A stretch of 64,000 nucleotides of DNA, from positions 32,001 through 96,000 of the IMG/VR virus record IMGVR_UViG_3300043788_000040. One strand, given 5' to 3'. Positions 36,045 to 48,138 of this stretch are shown one piece after another. Position 1 is the first letter of the stretch; every line of letters starts with the position of its first letter. The DNA comes from a virus. Both the position numbers and the translations under genes were made by a program. A model generated the notes under the pieces. The model did not search any database and had not been told where the DNA came from. It saw only the letters and a program-made list of their open reading frames with translations.

Positions 36045-36266
36045 ATGCCACAACCGTATCGGTGGTCAGACGGGTACAACCCGAACATTCCGCGTAACTG
36101 CACAGCCTGCGGGGAACTTCTCCTGTTGGAGAACCTATACGTGGACGATGGGTGTCCCTGTAATTCCGCAAGGGGCGTCAATTTCAAGCCCCAGCCGTGT
36201 GATCTATGCCAACTTGACTGTTGTGTCAAGCCGGGGCATCGGCTATCTCAGCTATTCGGCTCCTAA
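36045..36266 (+). CDS. Cys-rich small protein
   Basis: AGGAG RBS; several Cys pairs. Confidence 0.6.
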   Translation: MPQPYRWSDGYNPNIPRNCTACGELLLLENLYVDDGCPCNSARGVNFKPQPCDLCQLDCCVKPGHRLSQLFGS

Positions 36267-36285
36267 AAATAGTGAAAATCAGTTG

Positions 36286-36314
36286 TTGACAATTTCTCAG
36301 CTACGCAGTATTCT
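36286..36314 (+). promoter_or_regulatory. Sigma70 promoter of the Tyr/Leu tRNA operon
   Basis: TTGACA-17-TATTCT. Confidence 0.8.
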
Positions 36315-36323
36315 TTTAGAGCC

Positions 36324-36398
36324 ATGACAAACCTTACCCTATCCCTGACCTTGTATAGCCTGCTTAGCGGGCTTCACGGCGGTGTGTTCATCGGGTAA
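36324..36398 (+). CDS. Leu-rich attenuator leader peptide MTNLTLSLTLYSLLSGLHGGVFIG
   Basis: 7 Leu (CTT x3, CTA, CTG x2, TTG) + TAT; overlaps the antiterminator 5' strand. Confidence 0.75.
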   Translation: MTNLTLSLTLYSLLSGLHGGVFIG

Positions 36399-36569: not shown

Positions 36570-36800
36570 ATGAAAGTAACCCAGACGCACCTGATGAGGA
36601 AGACTGAGCAAGGCACCGAGGTCCACACGATATGCTGGCTCGATGTAAAGCCGAATGTGAAGGTTGGCTCAAGGGTGTCCTTAGAGGACTCGCCAAACGA
36701 GTGGTGGACTGTCTTGTCTCAGGGTGGGTTGCAAGACTCCTCAGAGATCAACCGGAAGTGGGGTCTGGACCTGCCGAAGACTCAACGGCTGGAAAGGTAA
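36570..36800 (+). CDS. Hypothetical protein
   Basis: GGAG RBS; ATG after the tRNA. Confidence 0.6.
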   Translation: MKVTQTHLMRKTEQGTEVHTICWLDVKPNVKVGSRVSLEDSPNEWWTVLSQGGLQDSSEINRKWGLDLPKTQRLER

Positions 36801-37091
36801 AGCGAAAGGGCATTGAGTCCGGCAAGGTCACGGTGTGCAAGCACTGCGACACGAAGCACCCCATGTACGCGAACGGGACGATTTGCTTCATGGCTTTCTT
36901 CTACATCTACGAGCGTGACTTGCTCTGGATGGCAAGTCACGACGGCACCGATGGCATATCGGGCTGGCGTGCGCTAGCGAATGATCTGGGGTTCAAGGAT
37001 GCAAAGATAGACGTGCCTTGGACATTCCCAGACGAGGGTCGTCTGATCCCGTACCGGAGGATCAAGGACGGCAAGTTTTTGAGCAAGTAAT

Positions 37092-42397: not shown

Positions 42398-42790
42398 TTG
42401 ACAACGTCCGAGCATCTCTGGGCACTGGCAACGGAGAGGGCGAACGCCCCCGAACACATGCGGGAATTGTTCGCTCTCGCCATTGACCGCGCCACGTGGG
42501 AAGCAGCCGACAAAATCAATCACGACGTCGGACGTTCCATTTCTTACGACTATCCGCTTTCATCTCGTTGGCAGGGATCGGAACGGCGTTTTTACGCTGA
42601 GGCGCTTCATCGCTACGTTCAACTCAAGCTGGCGCTCCACCGGGTGAAGACAAGGCTTTCGTGGCACACGCCGTCAGAAGACGAAGAGGTCTTCCTTCAC
42701 CACAAAGAGACAGCGCTCCGTGCCCAGATTAAAGCTGCACGAGCCGCCAAGGGCGAAGCGATCTGGGGCGATTTGACGCCCGAAAAATAA
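42398..42790 (+). CDS. Hypothetical protein
   Basis: Follows the upstream gene directly. Confidence 0.55.
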   Translation: MTTSEHLWALATERANAPEHMRELFALAIDRATWEAADKINHDVGRSISYDYPLSSRWQGSERRFYAEALHRYVQLKLALHRVKTRLSWHTPSEDEEVFLHHKETALRAQIKAARAAKGEAIWGDLTPEK

Positions 42791-42794
42791 CCTC

Positions 42795-42823
42795 TTGACA
42801 GTTTCCCGATTTCTTGGTACTAT
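42795..42823 (+). promoter_or_regulatory. Sigma70 promoter of the Pro/Met/Phe tRNA region
   Basis: TTGACA-17-TACTAT with extended TG. Confidence 0.85.
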
Positions 42824-42876
42824 ATGTGAGTACAAACTAAGCGGCGAAGTAAGCCGCTCATAGGTGCTGCCTTCAA

Positions 42877-42951
42877 ATGAACACGATGCGACCATTTTCG
42901 GGATTCCGACCGTACACGCCACCCAGCGTGCGCGGGGTCGCAAGTCTCTGA
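42877..42951 (+). CDS. Pro/Phe/Met-containing attenuator leader peptide MNTMRPFSGFRPYTPPSVRGVASL
   Basis: CCA, CCG, CCA, CCC, TTT, TTC and an internal ATG; AGGT RBS; 3' end overlaps the antiterminator. Confidence 0.7.
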   Translation: MNTMRPFSGFRPYTPPSVRGVASL

Positions 42952-42961
42952 CTTAGGAGAC

Positions 42962-42991
42962 AGCCCCCGCGCTGCAAGGCGTCGGGGCTTT
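42962..42991 (+). terminator. Attenuator terminator-like hairpin (alternative antiterminator 42930-42972)
   Basis: AGCCCC-C-GCGCT-GCAA-GGCGT-C-GGGGCT-TT (weak U tract); GCGCGGGG pairs with CCCCGCGC. Confidence 0.6.
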
Positions 42992-43051
42992 GTGGGTTAT
43001 GAAATTCCCAACAAAGAAGCAATTTTAGCCGCCCCGACTGTAGTTCTGTAT

Positions 43052-43139
43052 CGGGACGTAGCCTCGTAAATGGAAGCGATCTCGCTTTGGAAGCGAGAGC
43101 TTAACCGCCTTGGGAGTTCGAGTCTCCCCGTCCCGACCA
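43052..43139 (+). tRNA. tRNA-Pro(TGG), atypical (long variable region, A37)
   Basis: CGGGACG/CGTCCCG-A-CCA; CTCGC-TTTGGAA-GCGAG. Confidence 0.8.
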
Positions 43140-43168
43140 AGTTTCGTTCGTGAAGTCAACGAACATGT

Positions 43169-43245
43169 CAGGGCGTAGCGCAGTCTGGTAGCGCACTCGT
43201 TTCGGATACGAGGGGTCGCTGGTTCGAATCCAGTCGCCCTGACCA
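43169..43245 (+). tRNA. tRNA-Pro(CGG) (A37)
   Basis: CTCGT-TTCGGAT-ACGAG; CCA. Confidence 0.92.
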
Positions 43246-43250
43246 AGTTT

Positions 43251-43430
43251 GAGAGGCCCGGTGGACGTACCCATCGGCGTAAGTGGGTGGTTACATCCAG
43301 CCTCGTTGAGTGTGAGGTGGAGCGACATACGGGAAGGCGGCTGGCGATCAGCCCCCGGAGTCGTGGTACCGCAAGGTCCATAGTGCTGCCTGCCTAACCG
43401 CTCGCCGGATGGCAGCACGAGTCGCCCATA
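43251..43430 (+). ncRNA. Multi-hairpin structured RNA
   Basis: Non-coding spacer between tRNAs with several stems, e.g. GTGCTGCC/GGCAGCAC. Confidence 0.45.
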
Positions 43431-43434
43431 ATTT

Positions 43435-43511
43435 CGGGACGTAGCGAAGCCTGGTATCGCGCACCCTTGGGGTGGGTGAGGCCCCGAGTTCGAATCTCGG
43501 CGTCCCGACCA
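43435..43511 (+). tRNA. tRNA-Pro(GGG)
   Basis: CACCC-TTGGGGT-GGGTG; CCA. Confidence 0.95.
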
Positions 43512-43639
43512 AATTTTAGTAGTCAAAGGAAGCAATGATGAACAAACAACGCGGCTGGTACACAAGGATTTCAATGTAAGGCACCCTCACGTCCGTTTCG
43601 GTCGGAGGGATACTATCCCTCTGGGAAAGGAGACGGACG

Positions 43640-43825
43640 ATGAAGGTCGTGAAGGTGAAGTTTAACGCCAAGATGTTTTTCGTGAAGTTTGTGTTTTTCG
43701 TTGTTATCGCTGTGGTTGTGATCGCGATCTTCAAGAAGATCGGCGAGTTGGTTACCGCAGCGAAGTTGGTTGAGATGGCAGGCGAGGCTGTAAGCGAGGC
43801 TTTGTCTGAGGCAATCGACGTTTAA
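43640..43825 (+). CDS. Small membrane protein
   Basis: AGGAG RBS; one TM segment. Confidence 0.6.
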   Translation: MKVVKVKFNAKMFFVKFVFFVVIAVVVIAIFKKIGELVTAAKLVEMAGEAVSEALSEAIDV

Positions 43826-43828
43826 GTT

Positions 43829-43932
43829 TTGCAGGTTCGGATTGAGGGGCAGGGTTAATGGCCCTGCTCCGTCCCGTGTGGGTGACCCATTATCACCCTT
43901 AAGCGCCAGTGAAAAGCTGGAGCCTGCGACCA
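43829..43932 (+). ncRNA. CCA-ended structured RNA
   Basis: TTGCAGGTTC/GAGCCTGCGA closing stem then CCA; internal GGGCAGGG/CCCTGCTC hairpin. Confidence 0.45.
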
Positions 43933-43936
43933 GTTT

Positions 43937-44008
43937 TGCGGGGAAGTGAATTGGATCACGTCAGCCTCATAAGCTGAAAACCCGGTTCGAATCCGGCGAC
44001 CGCAACCA
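43937..44008 (+). tRNA. tRNA-Met(CAT)-like, degenerate acceptor stem
   Basis: TCAGC-CTCATAA-GCTGA; T-arm; CCGCAACCA end. Confidence 0.65.
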
Positions 44009-44080
44009 ATTTGGGCAGGTAGTGCCTCCGAACGGCGGGCACGTAAAGCGGAATCAACCGCCATCCTAGCCCGACATTTT

Positions 44081-44686
44081 ATGGAACAGTACCCAGAGAT
44101 ACCCGGCGCGAAGAAAGCTCCCCTCGGGGAGAAGTGCATCGCGTTCTACAAGTACGACGGCTCCAACCTCCGGTGGGAATGGAGTCCGAAGCGTGGCTGG
44201 TACAAGTTCGGCACACGGACGGAATTGTTTGCCCCGAACCATCCGCTGTGGGGGCAGGCGGTGCCGCTCTTCAACGCAGTCGGCGACGACATCGTCAAGC
44301 GGGTGCTGGCGAGTGACAAGAAGTTCCGCAACATTGAGCGGATCATAGCGTTCACGGAATTCTTCGGGCCTTCAAGCTTTGCCGGGACGCACGACGAGAA
44401 GGAACAGAAGGAACTCAGGCTCTTTGACGTTTGGCTGTACAAGAAAGGCAGGATGTCCCCCCGGTGGTTTGTGGAGACGTTCGGAGACGCACCCTATGCG
44501 GCTCAGGTGATCTACGAAGGCAACCTGAACATGGAGTTCATCCGCGACGTGCGGACTGGGAAGTATCCGGTGTGGGAAGGAGTCGTGGCGAAGGGCGACG
44601 ACTTCATGGTCAAGATCAAGACCGAGGCGTACATGCTGAAGCTGAAAGAAGTGTACGGTCTGAACTGGGAAAAGTTTTCGGAGTAA
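44081..44686 (+). CDS. RNA ligase-like nucleotidyltransferase
   Basis: Motif I KYDGSN, EFFG, LFDV, EGVVAK, VKIK; located inside the tRNA cluster. Confidence 0.75.
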   Translation: MEQYPEIPGAKKAPLGEKCIAFYKYDGSNLRWEWSPKRGWYKFGTRTELFAPNHPLWGQAVPLFNAVGDDIVKRVLASDKKFRNIERIIAFTEFFGPSSFAGTHDEKEQKELRLFDVWLYKKGRMSPRWFVETFGDAPYAAQVIYEGNLNMEFIRDVRTGKYPVWEGVVAKGDDFMVKIKTEAYMLKLKEVYGLNWEKFSE

Positions 44687-44687
44687 A

Positions 44688-44764
44688 CGGGACGTAGCGT
44701 AGCCTGGTATCGCGCATGCTTCGGGAGCATGAGACCGTGGGTTCGAATCCCACCGTCCCGACCA
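44688..44764 (+). tRNA. tRNA-Pro(CGG) (G37)
   Basis: CATGC-TTCGGGA-GCATG; CCA. Confidence 0.95.
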
Positions 44765-44769
44765 AGCTT

Positions 44770-44958
44770 ATGAGCAACAAGGTCAATCATAGACGGAGTG
44801 GGAAAGTTCGGGCGCAGCGCAGCAGGCGTTCGTCTAATCTGGTCAACGACCCGCGCCGGGACATCGGCAGGAATCACAACGACCAACTTTGCCACTCGGA
44901 GTGGAAGAAGATCAAGACGAGAATTGAGCGTCGCAGGTTAAAGGGAGAAGGAAGATGA
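44770..44958 (+). CDS. Small Arg-rich protein
   Basis: ATG after the tRNA; ATGA-coupled to the RF gene. Confidence 0.55.
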   Translation: MSNKVNHRRSGKVRAQRSRRSSNLVNDPRRDIGRNHNDQLCHSEWKKIKTRIERRRLKGEGR

Positions 44959-45615
44959 TTCTGGAGATAAGAGCAGCGGAAGGAGGCGAGGACGCGAAGC
45001 TCCTCGTTGAAGACCAAGTCACCATCTATGCCCGTGTGGCAACACGGAGGGGTCTTTAGTTTTGAGATTGTGGAGAAGCGACCGGGTCTCGTCGTATTGA
45101 GGATCACGGGCGCTGGGGCGGAAAGCATACTCGCCAACGAATCGGGTGGTCACCGCTGGCAAAGGGTACCGCCGACCGAGAGGCGAGGCAGGGTGCAGAC
45201 GAGCACGATCACCGTCGCAACGTTCGCCGAGGTGGCGACGGAAGAGTTCAAGGTGAACCCCACTGACTTAGAATGGGACACCATGCGAAGCGGGGGCAAG
45301 GGCGGGCAGAACGTGAACAAGGTTGAGTCCTGCGTTCGTGTCACGCACAAGCCGACCGGGCTGGCAGTACGATGTGAGTCCGAGCGGTCGCAGTCACGCA
45401 ACAGGGCGACGGCGCTTGCTACCCTGACTGCCCGGCTGGCAGCAGCGCACCGGGAGCGGGAGCAGGGCGCACAGTCCGCCGACCGGAAGGCGCAGATCGG
45501 CACGGGACAGCGTGGGGACAAGCGTAGGACAATCCGTGAGAAGGACGGGGTCGTGACAGACCACATCCTAAACCGGAAATGGCGATACGCGGACTATGTA
45601 CGTGGGCTGTGGTAA
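44955..45615 (+). CDS. RF1-type peptide chain release factor (no domain 1), made by +1 programmed frameshift
   Basis: Frame 0 MILEIRAAEGGEDA..RRGL-TAG; +1 frame ESGGHRWQRVPPTE..GRVQTST and GGKGGQNVNK; GGAGG-GGT-CTT-TAG at 45046-45059. Confidence 0.85.
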
Positions 45616-45618
45616 GAT

Positions 45619-45696
45619 GGCGGTGTAGCTCAGTTGGCTAAGAGCGCTGGTCTCATAAACCAGAGGTCGCTGGTTCGATCCCAGCCACCGCTACCA
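45619..45696 (+). tRNA. tRNA-Met/Ile2(CAT), elongator type
   Basis: CTGGT-CTCATAA-ACCAG; CCA. Confidence 0.9.
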
Positions 45697-45783
45697 AATT
45701 TTGCAGTACAAGGAGACAACGATGGCTAACCTTAGCAAGACCACTCATGCCGCGTAAGGCGTGGGCGGTCAAAGGAGAACCAA

Positions 45784-46299
45784 ATGTTGTCAGAAATCAA
45801 AAAGGCGGTCTCGCTGTACTTTGAGCCGCTCAAGAAGCTGTTGCAGTTCCGCGTAAAGCGCTGGCATACGGCTATGCGCGGCTGGGACGAGAAGGACATC
45901 CGGGTCATCATCTGTCTTGAAGACTTGATCTGGTACTGGATGGTTTTGGAATGGCTGTTCTGGGACAATGGCACGTACATCTGCCACTGGCTCCATTACG
46001 TCCCGCTTCCAAAATTTATCTGCAACTGGGAGCGTCACTGGGACAAGGACGACCCGGAGTACTTCGCCAAGTTCGGTGATTGGTTCGGCGATGACTTCGG
46101 ATGCCTGTGGCACGTATGGGTCTGTGACCCGTTGTGCCAGTGGGTGTGGAAGCACAAGGATTTCCACAAGGCGTGGCCTCAGTGGGAATTGACGCTGGAA
46201 GAAGCTCGCAAGACGTTTGCCCATGATCCGGCCATTTATGAGTGGGTTGAAAAAGAGCTTGAACAGCACAAGAAGTGGGATGCAGAAAAGGCTGAATAG
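45784..46299 (+). CDS. Trp-rich hypothetical protein
   Basis: AGGAG RBS. Confidence 0.65.
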   Translation: MLSEIKKAVSLYFEPLKKLLQFRVKRWHTAMRGWDEKDIRVIICLEDLIWYWMVLEWLFWDNGTYICHWLHYVPLPKFICNWERHWDKDDPEYFAKFGDWFGDDFGCLWHVWVCDPLCQWVWKHKDFHKAWPQWELTLEEARKTFAHDPAIYEWVEKELEQHKKWDAEKAE

Positions 46300-46318
46300 C
46301 GGTATCATATACAGAGTG

Positions 46319-46458
46319 GGAACCCCTCACTAACCTGACGAGGGGAGTTACCTGAAGACGCGGGATGGCCCAAAAGCGCTAGTTACCCGGCAGTCTAGGC
46401 TCTTAATCGCGTAACGGCTGAATAGCCGGAGCCGATGGTAACGGGGTTCTCACGCCAA
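46319..46458 (+). ncRNA. Structured RNA of unknown class
   Basis: GGGAACCCC/GGGGTTCTC closing stem followed by ACGCCA; internal hairpins. Confidence 0.45.
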
Positions 46459-46512
46459 GTTTTCAGTCCCAGTCCTGTCTGACTGGGTGGTTGCGGGGGC
46501 AAAAATTTCTGT

Positions 46513-46589
46513 CGCGGGATGGAGCAGCCCGGAAGCTCGCTTGGCTCATAACCAAGAGGTCGGTGGTTCAAATCCACCTCCCGCTACCA
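46513..46589 (+). tRNA. Initiator-type tRNA-Met(CAT)
   Basis: C1/U72 mismatch; fMet-type D-arm GAGCAGCCCGGAAGCTC; CTTGG-CTCATAA-CCAAG. Confidence 0.9.
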
Positions 46590-46594
46590 GTTCA

Positions 46595-47005
46595 ACGCCC
46601 GTAGGCTACGAGCCGAGAAGCAGAAGGGCTAGCAGAGTCATACGACCTTATAGGACGGGAAAGCTCTGCAACAGATGTGGCACGGGAGAACCGATGCGGG
46701 GAAGTCGCCTGTAAGTTTCCGTGCCGTCGTTTTCGGTTCCGTGTTCGTTTAAGGCGCAAGCCGGGTTCGTCACGGATTAAAGTGGTGGTCCAACGGAGAC
46801 GCCCCACGCCGAAGTGAGTTAACGCTCTAATACGGGAGCCAATCAATAACTCCCGTGGGGGCAGGTAAGACGCATTCGCTGAGTAATCTCCGGTTATCCG
46901 GTTGGTGCAGCGGTGAAATCGCGAATCATAGCGTCTTCTTAAACCGCCAGCCATGAGGGTCCCTGACGTCGGGTGGTGCAGTACTTCATGGAGCAATTTG
47001 GCGGT
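46595..47005 (+). ncRNA. ~410-nt structured non-coding region
   Basis: No credible ORF; many stems (GGCACGGGA/TTCCGTGCC, ACGGGAG/CTCCCGT, AAGACGC/GCGTCTT, ACCGCCA/TGGCGGT). Confidence 0.5.
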
Positions 47006-47011
47006 ACGAGT

Positions 47012-47153
47012 TTCGCAGCGGTGTATTGTACGGTTACTTCATGCAACCAGTAGGTCGCGGGTTCGAATCCCGTCATCCCAACGCTTTACGGGGTGTAGCT
47101 CAGTGGTAGAGCGACAGGTAAGAAAAACGCCGTGCATCTTTGTTCCCTGCGGA
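47012..47153 (+). ncRNA. YrlA-like bacterial Y RNA
   Basis: Permuted tRNA-like domain (T-arm, loop-closed acceptor CATCCC/GGGGTG, D-arm) on a long outer stem with GGTTACTTC. Confidence 0.75.
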
Positions 47154-47162
47154 TTAACTTTT

Positions 47163-47339
47163 CCTCGTTTAGCAAAACGAGGTGGCGCAGCGGAGAAGCT
47201 TTAGCGACTCCGTCAGCCGTTCTCGGACGTAAACCGAGTGGTGGAGGCGGGCACACTGTGCTCGCCCCTCAATGTCAGTTGAAGTACCGACGAGGCACGA
47301 AATGTGTGAACCGTTGACTCGGGAAAAAGACTGGCACCA
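47163..47339 (+). ncRNA. Multi-hairpin RNA ending in CACCA
   Basis: Series of hairpins; no credible ORF. Confidence 0.4.
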
Positions 47340-47525
47340 AATTTGAAGATGTTGTCCCAGTCAAGCTGTCGGACTAAACTCTGGACCCGGAGTAATGGGC
47401 TTGAAAGAAGCCATGCCCTAATAAGGAAGGCTGACAGCAAAAGATTACAATGAAGCTCACGTCCCAACTCGACACGTTTACCACGCCGCTTAAGGCGGCG
47501 CAGTAAACCTATCTGTGTACTGTAC

Positions 47526-47601
47526 CCGGACGTAGCTGATGTGGACTTAGCGCCACCCTGAAAAAGTGGAGATGGGAGTTCGATTCTCCCCGTCCGGACC
47601 A
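47526..47601 (+). tRNA. tRNA-Phe(GAA) (A37)
   Basis: Loop CTGAAAA; CCGGACG/CGTCCGG-A-CCA. Confidence 0.8.
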
Positions 47602-47603
47602 AC

Positions 47604-47681
47604 GGGGAGCGAGCTAGTCCGGTGATTTAGCGTCCGCCTGAAGAGCGGAAGAATTCGGTTCGACTCCGAGGCTCCCCGCCA
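47604..47681 (+). tRNA. tRNA-Phe(GAA) (G37, G73)
   Basis: TCCGC-CTGAAGA-GCGGA; CCA. Confidence 0.8.
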
Positions 47682-48042: not shown

Positions 48043-48138
48043 TGGTAGAGCACTCCTTGTTCTACCTTACCTTTGTTCCTGACAAATTGCAACGGCCTCA
48101 GTATTATATTGTCACGAGCACTAGAGGTCTCGTGAGAT

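Follow-up and report, generated by a model that had tools for sequence, protein, structure and literature searches.

How does a phage decide when to make its own transfer RNAs (tRNAs)? Phage tRNA genes are usually seen as passive supplements to codon usage or as spares against host defences that cut tRNAs, and a stretch of DNA in the virus record IMGVR_UViG_3300043788_000040 raises the question of whether their supply may instead be regulated. We analyzed a window of 64,000 nt, bases 32001-96000 of a single 170,563-bp virus contig, in which positions 42795-43051 (numbered from the first base of the window, as are all coordinates below unless given for the genome; all features lie on the + strand) stand directly ahead of an array of proline, methionine, and phenylalanine tRNA genes. 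We think it probable that this region is a ribosome-read sensor joined to an RNA switch for the Pro/Met/Phe tRNA operon, whose OFF state leads to premature 3'-end formation after a hairpin between two of its segments, B and C. That the leader is one member of a system spread across this phage group, in which the mini-gene of each tRNA array is written in the codons that its tRNAs decode, is strongly supported. Sequence comparison and folding models lend good support to the sensor and the switch; from them we infer that the leader is translated, that ribosomes stall on it, and which way the switch turns, such that the tRNAs are probably made only when ribosomes read the leader codons slowly.

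The putative sensor is a 24-codon open reading frame (ORF) at 42877-42951, MNTMRPFSGFRPYTPPSVRGVASL, which contains CCA, CCG, CCA, CCC, TTT, TTC, and an internal ATG. By codon number, the sensor codons are ATG4, CGA-CCA (5-6), TTT7, TTC10, CGA-CCG (11-12), CCA15, and CCC16. The array downstream (43052-47681) consists of nine tRNA genes interspersed with ORFs, in the order Pro TGG, CGG, GGG, Met(CAT), Pro CGG, CAT, CAT, and two copies of Phe GAA. The leader holds the exact Watson-Crick codon (CCA, CCG, CCC, ATG, and TTC) for all five of these anticodon types, and random 23-codon stretches of the phage's own coding sequence held exact codons for all five in 0.3% of trials. To place this leader among its relatives, homologues were collected from viral and metagenome contigs with a pattern of the conserved core, which gave about 15 distinct sequences, all of them directly upstream of Pro(TGG, CGG, GGG...)/Met/Phe arrays. 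The window leader, those of loci L001, L002, L003, and L009, and a distant form (L010) were found independently of the pattern, via the DNA polymerase of the phages. Of the 23 codons counted in the window leader, 7 are for Pro, Met, or Phe (binomial P = 0.011). Across the Pro-type leaders the share is 6-10 of 22-24 (binomial 0.045 to 6e-5, the lowest value in a relative), and these codons are restricted to positions 3-17.

The peptides of the Pro-type leaders follow the pattern M-N-T/L-M-R-P-[FT]-x-x-F-R-P-[CY]-x-P-..., in which both early Pro codons come after an arginine codon, CGA, that is fixed there and accounts for only 7% of the Arg codons of this phage. CGA is decoded via an inefficient I:A wobble, and it may slow the ribosome exactly where tRNA-Pro is tested. 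This would account for the arginine codons of the leader, which a preliminary description of the window, made from its letters alone, had listed as a caveat and which we now read as CGA fixed directly before Pro codons. The distant form, from the relative G002 (MRNLNPMRPQPKWLGVYVTD), is the single member of the family with an array that lacks tRNA-Phe, and its leader likewise lacks Phe codons; the tRNA-Phe of G002 is located in its Val/Gly/Ala array instead. We also considered Phe codons in Val/Gly/Ala leaders as support for this move, which proved uninformative, as other such leaders have Phe codons too.

If the leader inventories the tRNAs behind it, the other arrays should have leaders of their own. 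The contig carries 31 tRNA genes in three arrays (Val/Ala/Asp/Cys/Gly/Glu, Tyr/Leu, and Pro/Met/Phe), and each of the three has its own cognate leader, as do nearly all arrays inspected in four related genomes. The preliminary description had predicted blindly that a Gly/Ala/Val/Glu-rich leader would precede the array at 1-1571, and upstream of the window, at genome 30385-30525, we found a 46-codon ORF (MSFLNANSTAADTIFGRNVVACAGTVAAEAAAVNEGDTMSLGGFGE) that has the exact codon of every anticodon in that array (13 of 13; chance 8e-5). A strong terminator lies between this ORF and the first tRNA, directly before that tRNA. The Tyr/Leu leader (36324-36398) covers five of five anticodons by wobble, the rare codon CTA included, and the 3x3 matrix of leaders against arrays in this genome is diagonal. 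Among the relatives, leaders beginning MNRISSLSSSSSSF and MVRIHALSSSSSSS precede Ser arrays, those beginning MTSMKHNTVARKQWRNRRH and MTFMTAKSSRKHQRRNNRW precede Trp/His/Arg/Asn/Gln/Lys arrays, and those beginning MKQTLQTRTTTQQITIT and MKQTQTTRTTTTQRITIT precede Ile/Thr/Gln arrays, all with canonical terminators. Six unrelated leader families match six different tRNA sets. Across 18 leader-array pairs from five genomes, the anticodon coverage of a leader's own array was 0.80-1.00, versus a mean of 0.24-0.70 for arrays of other classes, and the true pairing was the single best permutation in each of the five genomes.

The modular codon-sensing design proposed earlier is therefore borne out by the diagonal matrix and by the cognate leaders in this genome and its relatives. 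The accompanying expectation that every other tRNA cluster would have a matching leader held for all three arrays here and for nearly all of those inspected in relatives; it failed for the Pro/Met/Phe array of one relative (G001, see below) and for an Ile/Thr/Gln array of another (G004, locus L123), where no leader was found in the 1.4 kb available. A TTA codon in the Ser leader of G003 had looked like a match to tRNA-Leu(TAA), but that array has no such tRNA; TTA and Leu-TAA occur together only in G002. We also observed that the Ser leader of G003 (L118, 1723-1803) and the Tyr/Leu leader of G004 (L126, 993-1079) share the same 3' part, encoding GGFGERVRWRGW, from which it would seem that these leaders exchange their codon-sensing and structural halves as modules. 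In several arrays, a small protein gene either separates the leader-terminator unit from the first tRNA or is flanked by tRNAs (L122, L120, L127, and 36570-37090 in the window), and leaders would control such embedded genes too.

Whether the ORF is translated at all is a separate question, for which the 15 distinct homologues are informative. The start ATG is invariant in all 15, insertions and deletions are of 3 or 6 nt only, and the ATG is preceded either by a Shine-Dalgarno-like GGAG or AGGT 11-13 nt upstream or by a -10 box 9 nt away, the latter homologues looking leaderless. Stop codons of all three kinds (TGA, TAA, and TAG) fall at the 5' edge of the loop of a small hairpin, the stem of which differs in sequence in every lineage (15/15). 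These patterns suggest that the frame is read by ribosomes. An explanation that dispenses with sensing would hold that the helices simply form a structured 5' leader of the tRNA precursor, serving its stability or processing, with the ORF and its codons as by-products of GC-rich structure. Some of our data point that way and weigh against a sensor: frame +2 is mostly open too (in 13 of 15 homologues), so that an open frame alone is weak evidence; the codon enrichment in the window leader taken singly is modest (P = 0.011, as above); and the pattern used to find 13 of the 15 homologues fixes ATGCGACC...TTYCGACCGT, so that conservation of those bases is partly forced by construction. Also weighing against a sensor, the leader has conserved codons that are not cognate to its array (Arg CGA, Cys/Tyr, and Thr), the Pro-type arrays of some relatives contain tRNA-Gln(TTG), Leu(CAA), or Ala(AGC) without a corresponding codon in the leader, and the relative G001 (L005) has Pro/Met/Phe tRNAs with no Pro-type leader between its Leu and Pro tRNAs. 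A structure without sensing is nevertheless hard to reconcile with six unrelated leader families that each match their own array, with a conserved ATG and Shine-Dalgarno element and indels in multiples of three, with a stop codon that stays fixed in the structure while the sequence around it changes, or with rare codons that are fixed (CGA here, CTA in Leu leaders). We consider it the least probable of the explanations weighed here, and very improbable in itself.

The second half of the element consists of segments that compete for one another. Segment A (GCGCGGGG, 42930-42937) covers leader codons 18-20 and can pair with segment B (CCCCCGCGC, 42964-42972, with CCCCGCGC at 42965-42972). Between them lies the inner hairpin GTCTC/GAGAC (42944-48/42957-61, spanning 42944-42961), with the TGA stop at the 5' edge of its loop; this is the stop-in-loop hairpin present in 15/15 homologues. 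B can alternatively pair with segment C (GCG-T-CGGGGC, 42979-42988) in a GCAA-capped hairpin at 42962-42989 (-18.9 kcal/mol), which is followed by a weak U-tract, TTTGTGGGTT (42989-42998). C in turn can pair with segment D (GCCCCGAC, 43031-43038), which was missed in the preliminary description and looks like the 3' acceptor strand of a tRNA-Pro with its discriminator. A middle hairpin, TTTGTGGG/CCCAACAAA (42989-43015), overlaps a conserved motif, GAA(A)TTTCCCAAC. The promoter, the 24-codon ORF, the A and B arms, the stop-codon hairpin, the GCAA-capped hairpin, and the nine tRNAs had all been placed correctly beforehand.

Covariation supports all three helices, including the competition between an antiterminator A:B and a hairpin B:C that had been suggested from the single sequence. 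A pairs with B in 100% of the cells scored, with three covarying pairs; B pairs with C in 99%, with one covarying pair (CG 6, UA 6, UG 1); and C pairs with D in 97%, with two covarying pairs and seven extra pair types in the 13 long-form homologues. Registers shifted as a control paired in 31-73% of cells only. The pairings exclude one another: B pairs with A or C, and C with B or D, but never with both. Three other ideas about this region were examined and dropped. The first was a second small ORF in the middle hairpin (ATG at 43000 in the window, MKFPTKKQF), whose frame and start, read by eye, are not conserved in relatives. The second was a Pro codon displayed in the conserved GAATTTCCCAAC motif in the manner of a T-box, where the CCC is inside a stem and loci L032 and L057 break the pattern. 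The third was that the C-to-D stretch is a degenerate tRNA, which the Rfam tRNA model does not recognise, so that we speak of a resemblance only.

The two alternative states of the window leader are close in predicted energy, with the B:C state at -85.8 kcal/mol and the A:B plus C:D state at -83.0, less than 3 kcal/mol apart. To model the effect of a ribosome, we repeated the folding with a ribosome-sized block moved along the leader codon by codon. In the unoccupied leader, upstream leader sequence holds A, and B pairs with C. Placing the A site anywhere in codons 2-15 changes the fold to A:B and C:D, and placing it at codons 16-20 restores B:C. The Tyr/Leu leader gave an equivalent result, with codons 2-15 leading to the antiterminator and all other states to the canonical terminator. 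Masked folding of both leaders thus indicates that waiting at the sensor codons selects A:B, as first proposed; helix choice would then depend on the position of a real ribosome. The model has its limits. In the 46-codon leader the antiterminator formed only for codons 8 and 32-36, and static folding fails to explain that long leader. In the homologue L096, a short form described below, B stays paired to the tRNA in every state, which means that thermodynamics alone cannot settle the direction of the switch.

Transcription of the leader would start from a promoter of sigma-70 type at 42795-42823, which has TTGACA at 42795-42800, a 17-nt spacer, and an extended -10 element, TG-n-TACTAT; the layout is kept in the relatives L031, L055, L060, L078, and L080. 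The + strand of the 170-kb contig has no more than three perfect TTGAC[AT]-N16-18-TAnnnT sites: this promoter, one that stands ahead of the Tyr/Leu tRNA array, and one ahead of an RNA operon at genome 126567. Looking at promoter regions more broadly, those at genome 30330-30370, 68260-68314, 74770-74823, and 126540-126595 (window -1670 to -1630, 36260-36314, 42770-42823, and 94540-94595) all precede RNA operons, namely the three tRNA arrays and one further RNA locus. Of the four, the region at genome 30330-30370 alone is not a perfect match; the other three share an A-rich element of the type AAAAATA just upstream of the -35 box, an element that also occurs in most of the leader promoters of relatives. 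Downstream of the promoter, the transcript has a 5'-proximal hairpin, GCGGC...GCCGC (42838-42860), directly upstream of the Shine-Dalgarno-like AGGTG (42862-42866). In relatives, a hairpin with another sequence occupies this position, and GGAG or AGGT and then CCTTCAA come between it and the ATG.

From these elements we propose the following course of events. A host-type RNA polymerase would start at TTGACA/TACTAT, and ribosomes would translate the 24-codon leader. When decoding is fast, the ribosome would pass through A to the stop codon and B would pair with C, and a leader that is not translated would likewise adopt B:C, so that both are OFF. When decoding of Pro, Phe, or Met codons is slow, the ribosome would wait at codons 4-15, with CGA before CCA and CCG possibly sharpening the response. 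A would then be free to pair with B once B has been made, C would pair with D, and the tRNAs would be produced. The new tRNAs would speed translation of the leader and the operon would be shut again, a negative feedback. In the window, the OFF state would end the RNA prematurely, at the B:C hairpin or immediately downstream of it (42962-42998, tail UUUGUGGGUU). This termination may be weak or factor-assisted, and it is the least certain step of the scheme.

The output is also where the reading is most exposed. Counted over the 9 nt that follow the stem, Pro-type leaders have 2-6 T, versus 6-8 T in 14 of 14 leaders of other types, all of which combine a GC-rich stem with a canonical U-tract. 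The tail of B:C in the window is weak, with 5 T in 9 (TTGTGGGTT), in keeping with the caution already attached to TTTGTGGGTT in the preliminary description, and in most relatives, with 2-4 T, there is no U-tract. In two lineages (L078, a 463-kb phage, and L096), the C-to-D stretch is absent altogether, and B pairs there with the 5' acceptor strand of tRNA-Pro(TGG), that is, nt 1-5 of the tRNA together with the GCG just upstream. Because C is the 5' strand of a tRNA in these short forms, B:C cannot be a terminator there. In addition, the conserved C:D helix and the middle hairpin would be superfluous in a simple terminator model. The original assignment of B:C as an intrinsic terminator was not upheld as a conserved property of the Pro-type leaders, and we regard it as doubtful. 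Weak or factor-assisted termination after B:C would fit the window and three or four relatives, and would be analogous to the arrangement at all other leaders.

The short forms suggest a different output for the same sensor and switch, in which the maturation of the tRNAs is gated. A C-rich strand, complementary to the acceptor, would capture the 5' acceptor strand of the first tRNA-Pro during its synthesis; in the OFF state this strand would be B in the short forms or the freed D in the long forms, including the window, so that the precursor misfolds and escapes cleavage by ribonuclease P (RNase P). With the switch ON, A:B (together with C:D) would lock the capturing strand away, and in the long forms C:D may itself be an RNase P site that looks like an acceptor stem, cleavage of which would free the array from its leader. 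In addition to the partner of B in L078 and L096, the L096 flank (TTTATACCCCG) complements nt 1-11 of the tRNA, the D segments of the long forms read (C)GCCCCGA-C and lie 13-25 nt before the tRNA, and the U-tract is not conserved. The short forms fall in two different branches of the leader family, as judged by eye from the peptides, and of the candidate outputs capture of the tRNA 5' strand is the only option for them. Sequestration of the 5' leader of a tRNA has been shown to control RNase P cleavage in a designed, ligand-driven riboswitch, in which alternative pairing hides or exposes the 5' side of the tRNA precursor (Ender et al. 2021; PMC7897497). The short-form relatives look built for a similar control of tRNA maturation by alternative pairing, with the difference that the trigger in the phage would be the position of a ribosome. 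Against this, pairing of D in the window with the tRNA 5' strand (CGGGACG) has one central mismatch and would be weak, direct control would reach only the first of nine tRNAs, the mature tRNA fold is so stable that the trap would need to be kinetic, and 42962-43051 is not tRNA-like by the Rfam tRNA model. We therefore treat maturation gating as a possibility that is on balance unlikely. The same tentative standing applies to its broader implication, a natural translation-driven gate in which a relay of helices (A:B, B:C, C:D, and finally D or B with the tRNA 5' strand) would transmit ribosome position to RNase P processing with no terminator involved.

A third output for the same sensor and switch would be Rho-dependent termination, as at mgtA, with a C-rich stretch around D free in the OFF state and hidden in C:D in the ON state. 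The Salmonella leaders mgtL (of mgtA) and mgtP (of mgtCBR) are short ORFs with Pro codons that sense charged tRNA-Pro and choose between alternative stem-loops without an intrinsic terminator, and mgtA uses Rho (PMC3641672). The Pro-type phage leader resembles them in its Pro codons, its alternative stem-loops, and its lack of a recognisable terminator. Both B and D are C-rich, and no canonical terminator is present in the phage leader. However, the stretch left free in the B:C state is only about 35-40 nt long with a modest excess of C over G, the short forms have no such stretch, and the idea presupposes a suitable Rho in the host; we judge it improbable. The phage leader also differs from mgtL and mgtP in that it has no sequence similarity to them, would sense Phe and Met as well, and would target its cognate tRNAs rather than a Mg2+ transporter or virulence genes. 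Premature 3'-end formation after B:C is the reading that we retain for the window.

Leader peptides that control by attenuation are classical in bacteria, among them trpL, hisL, pheL, and leuL, the multivalent thrL and ilv leaders, and the pheM leader of pheST. As proposed here, the phage leader shares with these a promoter-proximal short ORF rich in regulatory codons, a choice between exclusive helices set by ribosome position, a stop codon between segments 1 and 2, and negative feedback via the supply of charged tRNA. The window leader itself has its ORF behind a promoter, the regulatory codons, and mutually exclusive helices; its hairpin of -18.9 kcal/mol is followed by the weak tail UUUGUGGGUU. 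It departs from the classical attenuators in controlling the tRNAs themselves, in taking inventory of several amino acids and of individual synonymous codons, and, for the Pro/Met/Phe leader, in lacking a canonical hairpin with U-tract while having the extra conserved C:D helix. T-box riboswitches are similar in being cis-acting leaders that report tRNA status and control genes of the translation apparatus, but they bind uncharged tRNA directly, without translation, whereas the phage element has an ORF that is probably translated. No T-box was detected by Rfam, either across the whole window at the gathering score or within 42780-43560 at E up to 5, and the leader matched no other Rfam family; it is not a T-box. 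A search of a library of papers returned no published description of leader-peptide control of tRNA genes. What would be new here is that phage tRNA genes are the target, that the inventory is taken codon by codon, and that in the Pro type a sensor without a recognisable terminator is wired to the tRNA's own acceptor strand.

The array itself has several features of its own. Scans inside it detected no consensus promoter and no canonical terminator, and the next promoter-like site is at 48079. Its first gene, tRNA-Pro(TGG) at 43052-43139, is atypical: it is 88 nt long, carries 3 extra nt after position 9, has a variable region of 12 nt, and scores only 40 bits on the Rfam tRNA model. The tRNA-Pro(TGG) of relatives is kept at 87-92 nt, and some also have a tRNA-Pro(CGG) of 90-93 nt. 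Three tRNAs have the anticodon CAT (43937-44008, 45619-45696, and 46513-46589). In the third, C1 and U72 are mismatched, but the anticodon stem is not of the GGG/CCC type; ATA does not occur among the leader codons. Two long non-coding spacers between tRNA genes, a GC-rich one at 43246-43434 (189 nt) that looks structured and one at 43512-43936 (425 nt) with only a 61-aa ORF, had no match in Rfam. A 202-aa ORF within the array (45007-45615) contains the end of a PCRF domain and a full RF-1 domain and is thus a release-factor-like protein.

This protein is one of several recognisable products, together with a family-A DNA polymerase, a 5'-3' exonuclease, and a NADAR protein, and the + strand carries nearly all long ORFs. 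No close relative was found in the GenBank phage collection, where matches to the contig were tRNA-sized only. Comparison of the DNA polymerase led to relatives at 47-74% identity, which are contigs of uncultured phages; two of these are complete (455 kb with 64 tRNA hits and 463 kb with 69). Some of these related large phages (L120, G003:234000-241000; L124, G004:25000-27500; L135, G005:128000-134500) have 2-3 tRNAs with the amber-reading anticodon CTA, which ARAGORN labels 'Pyl' and which adjoin odd calls with 2- or 4-base anticodons. This hints at reassignment or suppression of stop codons in the phage group.

If our reading is correct, the supply of phage tRNAs would be driven by demand and limit itself, array by array, and attenuation, the oldest known form of bacterial RNA control, would extend to tRNAs themselves. 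One could then read from the leaders, codon by codon, the tRNAs that each operon is intended to replace. That the sensor is kept in the window leader when the terminator is not would indicate either a second output, the control of tRNA maturation, or termination signals of a kind not yet recognised.

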